Shown here piece after piece: positions 1-2,642 of a stretch of 2,642 bases of DNA. A program made the translations under genes and the position numbers. The notes beneath the pieces are model-generated. The model was given only the letters and a program-made list of their open reading frames with translations, searched no databases and was not told the DNA's origin. The stretch comes from Escherichia phage ECO95 1-6-1: sequence record OR845419.1, one strand, 5' to 3'. Within the stretch, counting starts at the first letter, position 1; the number at the start of each line of letters is the position of its first letter.

Positions 1-2642
1 TTTGTGTCCTTCTGCACGCGCTGTATCTGCTGTATAGTGGCGCTCTGGTTCTCCAGCGTTTTACTGACCGTCTGTGTGATTTCATTGCGGGTTTCCGTGA
101 TGGTGGTCTTCATCTCCGCCATCTCATCCGCAAGCTGGCTGTTGTCTATCAGCTCCCATAGCCCCTGAGCCAGATGCAGTTTTCCTATTTTTTCCCGGAA
201 AAATTCCAGATACCCTTCACCATCATTGCTGGGCTGCCCGCTGACTTCCACAAACGCAGATTTCCCCACCAGGTTGACGCTGCGCACGTAAAACCAGAAA
301 TCCGTCCCCGGCTTAATCCGGCTTCCCTGGACAGTCCACTGACTGCCGCTCCCCAGATAACGGGCAGATTTTTCCACCTGTGCCGTGTTCGTGATGCGTT
401 TTTCCGAAAACCAGAACTCAAACTGCACCGTCGGGTCATACACCGCCAGCACCGGTACCGCCGTTATCTGAAAATACCCCGGCGTCAGTTCAATGGTGGC
501 GGGTTTTGCTGGCGCGTTAATCCGGAAGGTGGTGGTGGCCGGTTCGCCCTGCTGGCCATAACTGTTAATTGCCCTGACTGTCAGGGTGTATTCCCCGAGC
601 GGCAGACCACTGAAACGATGCTCTGTATCCGCAGTGATGGCGGTGGTCACCAGACGGCTGTCCTGACCGCTTCCACTGGTCAGGCGCAGACTGAAGCGCA
701 CGCCCTTCACCACCCGCGGCGTGTCCCATTTCGCCTGCGCCAGATACTGGCCGTCAGCTGCACTCACCTCCACCGTCAGGTGCTGCACTGCCGGTGGGAT
801 GACGCTGTTCAGGGTGCCTGACTGCGGCTCAAAGCGGGCCCCGTTATCCACGATGGCTTCTTTTTCCGGTACGTGCTGCACTGCCGTGATGGCAAAGGTG
901 CCGTCCGTGTTTTCCCGGATGGAGACACAGCGGAACAGGCGACGACGCAGTGACGGCAGGGAGAGCCCCCACACACCGTATGTCTCCACGCCATCCGGCA
1001 GGGTGCTGACCTGTATCCGGTCCGGCGCGGGGTGTGCAGTGATGGCCACGCTCACCGGCTTACCGCTGCCGTTAATCAGGTTCACCGTGGCGGCACCTGT
1101 CTCCGGCAGGGTCACCTCACGGTCCAGTGTCAGGGTGCGGCTGGCGGCATCGATGGACAGGATACGTCCGCCGGTCATGGTCCCGGCATAGTCGTTATCA
1201 CAGATTTCAATAATGTCACCGGGTGTGTGACGCAGCCCCTGTGACCCGAGCGTGAAATCCACCGTCTGCGTTTCCAGCAGTCCGGTCTTTATCACCCACA
1301 GCCCGGCACGGTGGGCCTGACCGCGACTGGTGCAGCCGAACGCATCCATCTTCAGCAGGTTGCGTCCGTAGCGCAGTATGGCTTCCGGGTCTTCCACCAG
1401 TTCCGTGGAGGTCTGCCAGCCGTTCTGCGGGTCGGTGTAATTCACCTCCACCGCCGTGTGGCGGTCCTTCAGGGCGCTGAAGCTGTAGCGAAACCCCACG
1501 CCGTTATCATCCACCACCACATCACTGTTGGTGTACGGCCACACCACATCCGACGGGCGGTCCTGAACGAACGTCAGCGTCTGGCCGTTCCATACCGGCA
1601 TACAGCGCATCGCCGAGCAGAAATCACTGAGCACATCCCACGCCTTACGCTGTTGTGACAGGTACGCATTAAAGGTCATCCGCGGCTCTGTGCCCCCGAA
1701 ACCATCAGGGACCATCTGGTCGCAGTACTGCGCAATGGCATACAGCGCCCACTTGTCCACATCCGCCGCCCCCAGGCGTTTTCCCATTCCGTAGCGCGGG
1801 TGGGTCAGCATGTCCCACAGGCACCAGGCAGGGTTGTTGCTGTATGCCGGTTTCAGGCTGCCGTCCCAGATGCCGCTGTACGTGCGTTTTTCCGGGTCAT
1901 AGTTTGACGGTACCTGAATGATGCGACCACGGATATGGTAGTTCACCGTCATCTGCTGGCCGCCAAACTGCTCCGCATCCACCTGCAGCCCCACAATCGC
2001 CGTGTTCGGGTAGCACTGTTTCACATCGATGATTTCGGTGTATGACGACCAGAGCGTCTTATTCTGCAGCTGGTCCGAGGTGCTGTCCGCTGTCTCCCGG
2101 ACCATCCGGATGTTAAAGGGCCGCTCAGGCAGATTATCCAGAATCACCGACGCCAGAAACTGCGAGGTGGTCTTGCCGTTAATGGTGACATCCTTTTCCG
2201 TCACCCAGTTACCGTTACGCTGCAACTGAATCAGCAGTCGGACAGAAGAGTGATTACGGTCGCCCTTTGAGGTGGTCTCCAACAGTGACTGCACCCCGAA
2301 GGTGACCCGCAGGCGGTCAATGTTCGCGGACGTAATGGTGCGCGTCACCGGCTTTGCCTTCGTCACTTCCACGCCCAGTGCGGTTTCAGCTCCGGAGGAC
2401 TCAAAGCCTTCAGGTGGTGTCTGCTCCTGCTCCCCGGCGCGCCAGACCGCTGTCACACCACGTATCACAGGATTACCGTCCGTGTCCGTCAGCGGGGTTT
2501 TGTTCACCAGAATACTCTGCAGCCCCTTCACCGGACCTTCAATCGGCCCTTCACCAATGGCATCAATCACGCTCATCATCTGCGTGGACTTAAGATTGTC
2601 CTTTGCCTCAACCGGCGTGTGCGCCTTGCCGCCACCTTTACC
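1..2642 (-). CDS. J: Host specificity protein J / central tail fibre (tail tip) protein of a lambdoid phage or prophage; partial at both ends (internal fragment, roughly residues 2-881 of an expected ~1,100-1,200 aa protein)
   Basis: Seen in sequence: I translated the minus strand codon by codon in the frame whose first codon is 2642..2640 and found 880 sense codons with no TAA/TAG/TGA (codons span 3..2642; positions 1-2 are a partial codon). N-terminal translation [84 protein letters not shown]... Internal stretches include [33 protein letters not shown] (about 1749..1841), [74 protein letters not shown] and [29 protein letters not shown]. Established knowledge (recalled, not searched): these match phage lambda gpJ along essentially its whole N-terminal ~880 residues. 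G/C is preferred at third codon positions in this frame. Confidence 0.93.
3..215 (-). other. C-proximal segment of the window with heptad-like, Q/E/T-rich character (possible trimeric coiled-coil / fibre shaft entry); continues beyond the left edge
   Basis: Seen in sequence: translation ...[73 protein letters not shown], with hydrophobic residues (L/M/I/V) recurring at roughly 3-4 residue spacing among polar Q/E/T/K residues. The coiled-coil interpretation is inference; no prediction was run. Confidence 0.4.
243..797 (-). other. Two tandem fibronectin type III-like beta-sandwich modules within J (about 513..797 and 243..512; window residues ~616-710 and ~711-800)
   Basis: Seen in sequence: each module ends in an FN3-style tyrosine-corner motif, [19 protein letters not shown] (540..593) and [17 protein letters not shown] (252..302), preceded by W/Y-containing strands (AKWDTP..., FEFWFSEK...). 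Inference from the general FN3 consensus Y-x-[LF/Y]-x-V-R-[AS]-x-N-x-x-G. Module boundaries are approximate; no HMM search was run. Confidence 0.55.

Follow-up and report, generated by a model that had tools for sequence, protein, structure and literature searches.

In the central-fibre protein J (gpJ) of phage lambda, an alpha-helical shaft (AHS; residues 809-861, comprising 809-840 and 841-861) forms a three-helix bundle between the second FNIII domain (FNIII-2) and the beta-prism central straight fibre (CSF), and holds the three FNIII-2 arms together from beneath (PDB 8XCK/8XCI/8K35 series; Ge & Wang 2024, PMC11101478). On LamB binding this shaft flips by ~180 degrees and wraps the CSF, with residues 841-861 turning into beta-strands, and its refolding frees the FNIII arms, so that the tail tip opens (PMC11101478). 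The homologous AHS of F-type pyocins is much longer and is built as a coiled coil with three strands (PMC13455828), so that variation in AHS length is already known. Here we describe the shaft of the J protein encoded by a stretch of 2,642 nt from Escherichia phage ECO95 1-6-1 (OR845419.1; positions 1 to 2,642, hereafter the window). Nucleotides 3-221 of the window, on the minus strand, encode most of the AHS of a lambda-type J, which belongs to a medium-length class (81 residues against 53 in lambda) and is exchanged as a cassette among related phages. Very probably this cassette serves the central fibre as a spacer and trigger and does not determine host range.

Among the closest known systems, the lambda AHS occupies the same place between FNIII-2 and the beta-prism, is likewise helical, follows a region of 73% identity, and is homologous to the present shaft at its head (EGYL.FF...HL) and its tail (..KD...KTKDG); it differs in its length and in having no counterpart to the middle ~31 residues seen here. 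YYZ-2008 J (YP_002274204), phage 2851, Stx1a- and Stx2c-converting phages and O157:H7 prophages carry a 100% identical 215-nt segment and match the whole window at 98.5-98.7% identity; against YYZ-2008 J the last ~640 nt of the window's gene fragment are identical, with 40 differences scattered upstream. A8, a chimera that gives lambda gpJ a natural C-terminus, delivers DNA via OmpC (Brodel et al. 2024, PMC11338833; PDB 9wca/9wcb); its OmpC-binding receptor-binding domain (RBD) is near the YYZ-2008 type, whereas the short lambda AHS is kept, and in both A8 and the chimera 1A2 the engineered join lies at lambda residue 964 (PMC11338833). The central fibre of the F2-type pyocin PyoF10 (PMC13455828; PDB 25vf) has a hub homologous to J (E = 1.6e-121 over residues 3-696) and an AHS that also follows two FNIII domains and is also unlike lambda's in length; it differs in being far longer and in docking side fibres by way of an insertion or kink, and sequence similarity between it and the window's AHS was not detected.

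Identification of the helical shaft

The minus strand of the window holds a single open frame that spans all 2,642 nt (nt 3-2642, 880 codons), with start and stop codons outside, and corresponds to residues 2 to ~882 of a J protein of ~1159 residues; the assignment draws on the translation, on 98.5% nucleotide identity to YYZ-2008 J and on Pfam. Matches to FNIII-A_GpJ (window residues 85-206) and Phage-tail_3 (329-497), at E-values of 1e-39 to 1e-41, identify an N-terminal hub of gpJ type, the window protein matches PDB entry 8iyk_J at E = 0, and two consecutive FNIII/Ig domains follow, Ig_J (608-711) and Ig_J_second (713-815). The second of these is FNIII-2 (nt 198-506, minus strand; domain naming from PMC11101478) and lies directly upstream of the shaft, and the window translation has no Pfam match beyond it. 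In the nearest relatives the region past the window end carries Phage_Tail_Tip (the beta-prism fibre) and Ig_GpJ_C (the C-terminal Ig-like RBD). The interval between Ig_J_second and Phage_Tail_Tip that Pfam leaves uncovered measures 54 residues in YYZ-2008 J (Phage_Tail_Tip from residue 872) against 26 in lambda, and the nearest full-length relative has 28 residues more than lambda in the shaft segment.

A preliminary description of this DNA, made from its letters alone, had held that the translation departs from lambda J from near position 200 leftward, beyond the landmarks KSAFVE and EGYL.FF. Both landmarks are found in the translation, and pairwise alignment with lambda gpJ (NC_001416) confirms the departure: window residues 1-820 are identical to lambda at 597/820 positions (72.8%) and residues 821-880 (nt 3-182) at 11/60 (7/20, 1/20 and 3/20 in successive blocks; binomial P(<=11/60) = 2e-18), the lowest 60-residue block elsewhere in the window having 31/60. 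The level of lambda identity is thus not maintained through the segment; similarity weakens from nt ~200 and is absent by nt ~146. When the 73-residue segment was searched alone, Pfam returned no match, lambda gpJ aligned at the first 27 residues only with a non-significant E-value of 0.6-0.9, and the best PDB matches were weak ones to the Rad50 coiled coil (E = 0.02-0.05). That a frameshift, sequencing or assembly error makes lambda-like sequence merely look divergent can practically be dismissed: the frame is open throughout, the 215 nt recur with 100% identity in several independently sequenced phages and genomes, and DNA identity to lambda in the divergent stretch is ~40-56%, unlike that of a frame-shifted copy of the same DNA.

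Three parts can be told apart in the shaft. The head (nt 147-233, minus strand; window residues 804-832) is alignable to lambda 807-835 by global alignment, and phmmer aligned it to lambda gpJ 800-836. The middle (nt 54-146, minus strand; residues 833-863) has no lambda counterpart and accounts for a net 28 extra residues, the insertion being placed between lambda V835 and E839 by both phmmer and global alignments; a first MAFFT alignment had misplaced this gap and understated the similarity at the extreme end. The tail (nt 3-53, minus strand; residues 864-880) aligns weakly with lambda 839-855 in the same two kinds of alignment, with 3/17 residues identical as counted on the global one. By this low-identity alignment, window residues 866-880 would match the beginning of lambda 841-861, the part that turns from helix to beta-strands on LamB binding. 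The shaft ends ~6 residues beyond the window edge.

The segment is helical. Its hydrophobicity has a helical periodicity (period 3.4, z = 3.75, p = 0.0075), with Fourier power peaking at periods of 3.2-3.4 and ~3.6 and not at 3.5. Single-sequence AlphaFold2 (AF2) modelling of window residues 700-880, a monomer prediction, returned two helices in the head (residues 808-818 and 827-831) and an uninterrupted helix of 45 residues (835-879) that includes the middle, with means of the predicted local distance difference test (pLDDT) in 10-residue blocks of 69-92 over roughly residues 840-879. These helices, with the alignment of both segment ends to the lambda AHS, place the segment in the helical shaft and support an amphipathic character. 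The heptad-like character proposed in the preliminary description holds in its helical part and fails in its strict form, as a/d heptad occupancy did not rise above that of shuffled sequences either in helix 2 (best register 0.56, p = 0.16) or in the whole shaft (p = 0.48); an 11-residue register received weak support (p ~ 0.02). A test for internal repeats in the shaft of the window gave nothing significant (lag 7, p = 0.25), and the segment contains no tandem DNA repeat.

Exchange of the shaft between J genes

A search for homologous proteins gave almost only near-identical partial J sequences, and allelic diversity was therefore taken from 80 J loci collected from IMG/VR and aligned by codon, a sample biased toward YYZ-like J. 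The alignment contains three separate joints, at FNIII-2/AHS, AHS/CSF and CSF/RBD. The N-side joint of the shaft cassette maps to YYZ residues 816-819 (nt 192-203, minus strand). Here L001 and L057 show 4 mismatches across residues 780-815 and dense mismatches from residue 819; their DNA identity is 93-97% at YYZ residues 750-810 (85-97% at 700-810), drops to ~45% inside the segment, and is again 83-97% from ~890 to ~970. The C-side recombination zone (YYZ residues 852-874; nt 27-95, minus strand) runs through a conserved 12-residue block and is traced by the informative sites of L007, which are L070-like to residue 851, mixed at 858-871 and L001-like from residue 874. The shaft segment is thus a mosaic cassette with joints on both sides, and parental identity switches abruptly at its borders.

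Exchange of this kind has to be weighed against an origin in place, in which the difference from lambda would have accumulated through rapid drift and indels in a spacer under weak constraint, with no foreign cassette involved. Both segment ends can still be aligned to lambda, and a significant 29-residue tandem repeat in the long shaft class (p<=0.007) shows that local duplication does alter shaft length. Relatives outside J proteins are also few: at E<=0.001 the segment is matched by 50 of 1.84 billion representative proteins, almost all of them fragments of J. The spacer is not weakly constrained, however, since the ratio of non-synonymous to synonymous substitution rates (dN/dS) between shaft alleles is 0.17-0.29, comparable to the flanks (mostly 0.08-0.25, with one FNIII-2 comparison at 0.35), which indicates constrained coding sequence under purifying selection and not diversifying sequence. 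The abrupt switches of parent that several allele pairs show at the borders of the cassette likewise speak for exchange, and the GC content of nt 1-200 (0.515) lies below that of most of the window (0.55-0.65), though amino-acid composition could explain this as well. An origin wholly in place is accordingly unlikely in our judgement, the histories of the AHS and its flanking domains appearing incongruent in a way that runs contrary to it, although drift or duplication in place and cassette exchange are not mutually exclusive.

The composition of nt 1-200 also stands out by an AT skew of -0.46, the coding strand being A-rich, and GC in the remaining window ranges from roughly 0.52 to 0.66; the low GC value fits either a foreign origin or the amino-acid composition of the segment.

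The shaft and the receptor-binding domain

The preliminary description went further and read the divergent segment as a possible mosaic junction toward the receptor-binding region, and hence as a possible sign of a different distal fibre with a different receptor specificity. Two observations make this attractive: identity to lambda is lost sharply near nt 200, and the nearest full-length relatives do have a non-lambda RBD, ~40% identical to that of lambda and differing at ~2 residues from the OmpC-binding RBD in PDB 9wca ('A8 gpJ 713'). The sequence distal of the shaft is not all of a new type, however. Between YYZ-2008 J and lambda, identity is back to 70-88% at residues 920-1000, within the CSF, with 70-85% at the protein level, and falls to ~40% only after the motif SGSVNANSGTL, where the separate CSF/RBD joint lies (YYZ residues ~985-1000, ~110 codons beyond the window). 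Natural alleles show this joint: L052 is lambda-like up to it and YYZ-like beyond, L073 switches there to YYZ-like from a type-B background (see below), and the join engineered at lambda residue 964 coincides with this natural joint.

Shafts and RBDs also assort independently. Between fixed anchors in 82 J loci, the shaft region has three lengths, 72 residues (lambda type), 100 residues and 173 residues (long), the 100-residue class comprising the window's type A and a type B that is 65% identical to it. With AHS and RBD each clustered at 80% identity, the window's AHS type was paired with at least six RBD clusters, one RBD cluster was paired with five AHS clusters, and the YYZ-type RBD was found with short, type-A and type-B shafts. 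Four records with a 100% identical 215-nt segment were checked; three of the four have the YYZ tail, and phage 2851 has a different RBD. AHS type therefore does not predict RBD type, and A8, which pairs the short AHS of lambda with a YYZ-type RBD and works on OmpC, indicates that the window's AHS is not needed for receptor use. A J protein of YYZ type probably uses OmpC, a choice set by an RBD that works on lambda's short shaft too. A mosaic segment with a joint at nt ~192-203, the position given in the preliminary description, is accordingly what remains of the junction proposed for the window's left end, and the view that the segment marks a passage into a fibre of different receptor specificity is very improbable.

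L052 (IMGVR_UViG_2534681674_000013) is a naturally occurring J built like the engineered A8 chimera: it is lambda-like to YYZ residue ~985 (97-100% DNA identity in most 20-codon windows, 0.80-0.93 in a few) and of YYZ type thereafter (95-100%). Variation in the final ~20 residues of the shaft goes together with CSF type, as would be expected if the shaft folds back onto the CSF, although linkage alone may account for it. In L057-L068 and L065 the long shaft (J residues ~808-961) measures ~154 residues, 73 more than the window's type, and has a periodicity near 3.6-3.67, not 3.5.

Proposed role of the shaft

By homology with lambda, the AHS cassette would join the FNIII-2 domains to the beta-prism CSF and act as a spacer and trigger within the central fibre once the distal RBD has bound its receptor. 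It would do so as a trimeric bundle that refolds, and if the extra residues are helical, the rod would be ~4 nm longer than that of lambda (28 x 1.5 Å). The segment is swapped among lambdoid phages as a separate cassette that moves without regard to the RBD.

Several points weigh against this reading. The heptad register is non-significant (p = 0.16-0.48) and does not support a coiled coil in the strict sense. Identity to the metamorphic helix of lambda is 3/17, so that the helix-to-beta switch would be carried over from lambda by inference. In type-B relatives the equivalent region has a proline at its middle, and the shaft may therefore be kinked and not one straight rod. An AF2 monomer of the 553-residue C-terminal part (P0003), built on a shallow alignment of nine rows, had a mean pLDDT of 44, and this model was used solely for the helix seen at YYZ 837-884. 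The trimeric state of this allele and any effect of its 28 extra residues are likewise inferred. With these points counted, a medium-length spacer and trigger element is still the reading that we hold with considerable confidence.

A longer shaft might also be a platform on which side fibres or some other accessory protein dock, for which F-type pyocins provide a precedent, since their side-fibre trimers attach to the extended AHS (PMC13455828); medium and long AHS classes also occur in prophages that encode side-fibre genes downstream of J. The side fibres of Ur-lambda, on the other hand, attach by collar domains to gpV/gpM and not to the AHS (PMC12617516), and the specific kink or insertion of the pyocin AHS was not identified in the window's AHS. 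Docking is therefore improbable as the explanation of this shaft, and the spacer and trigger role is preferred.

More speculatively, the shaft middle could be a length-quantised, freely exchangeable cassette (53, 81 or 154 residues) that tunes the distance between tip and hub, or the ease of the helix-to-sheet trigger, and so matches the fibre to how thick the host surface layer is, whatever the receptor chosen, with the last ~20 residues co-adapting with the beta-prism; alternatively, longer versions might dock accessory fibres as in F-type pyocins. We offer this as a tentative idea with a rather low chance of being correct.

Prevalence and significance

The preliminary description had allowed that the variant might be a common, already described J allele, and this caution was well placed. 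Of 5,426 complete E. coli genomes, 747 contain the 215 nt, at a median of four copies per genome. The same 215 nt occur in 160 phage records, while the whole window is matched by 251 records. The window is 95-98% identical to the J genes of many Stx1a-, Stx2a- and Stx2c-converting phages, and the best-matching complete E. coli genomes, all O157:H7, reach 98.7% identity. The allele is thus common and was deposited years ago in public genomes of phages and E. coli, and its domain is structurally described already, so that it has little discovery value as such. A modest addition to what is known is the behaviour of the shaft middle as an independent cassette of variable length.

On a practical level, users who annotate lambdoid and Stx prophages or predict their host range should base receptor specificity on the final ~160 residues of J and disregard a divergent shaft. 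For chimeric J designs, such as lambda-based delivery particles, the FNIII-2/AHS, AHS/CSF and CSF/RBD joints provide three natural crossover points, and shaft length would be an additional engineering handle if it is true that length tunes reach or triggering.

Further features of the window and related loci

A second, small mosaic patch lies upstream of the shaft at nt ~813-843 (minus strand; residues ~601-608), where the window reads ARFEPQSG, one codon shorter than the AHFDGDQSG of YYZ-2008. This patch holds 10 of the 40 differences between the window and YYZ-2008, and the same 42-nt patch is found in 20 IMG/VR contigs. Plus-strand open reading frames (e.g. 174-821) are antisense by-products of the J frame. 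Chi sites are absent from the window, and promoter-like or terminator-like sites are absent from nt 1-500. The window itself consists of J only; in YYZ-2008 and O157:H7 strain 2-6-2 the gene order is K-I-J-lom.

Users of public J sequences should be aware that some are irregular. In the J fragments P0001 and P0002, stretches of ~70-120 residues of the CSF or RBD are duplicated internally; these duplications inflate the bit scores and are probably assembly artefacts. L029 has a 3681-nt tblastn match and a longest open frame of 843 residues that stops no more than a few residues from where the shaft region begins, and is probably a frameshifted pseudogene. P0155, a database representative of 1209 residues, passes from lambda-like J (residues 1-177) through a type-B shaft into a side-tail-fibre-like body, with a C-terminus that, judged by eye, resembles an S74-type intramolecular chaperone; P0155 stems either from a decaying prophage that underwent a deletion/fusion or from misassembly. 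In YYZ-2008, an Ant anti-repressor gene lies inside the tail block (L001:2446-3369), between the genes for an L-like minor tail protein and a K-like C40 peptidase.

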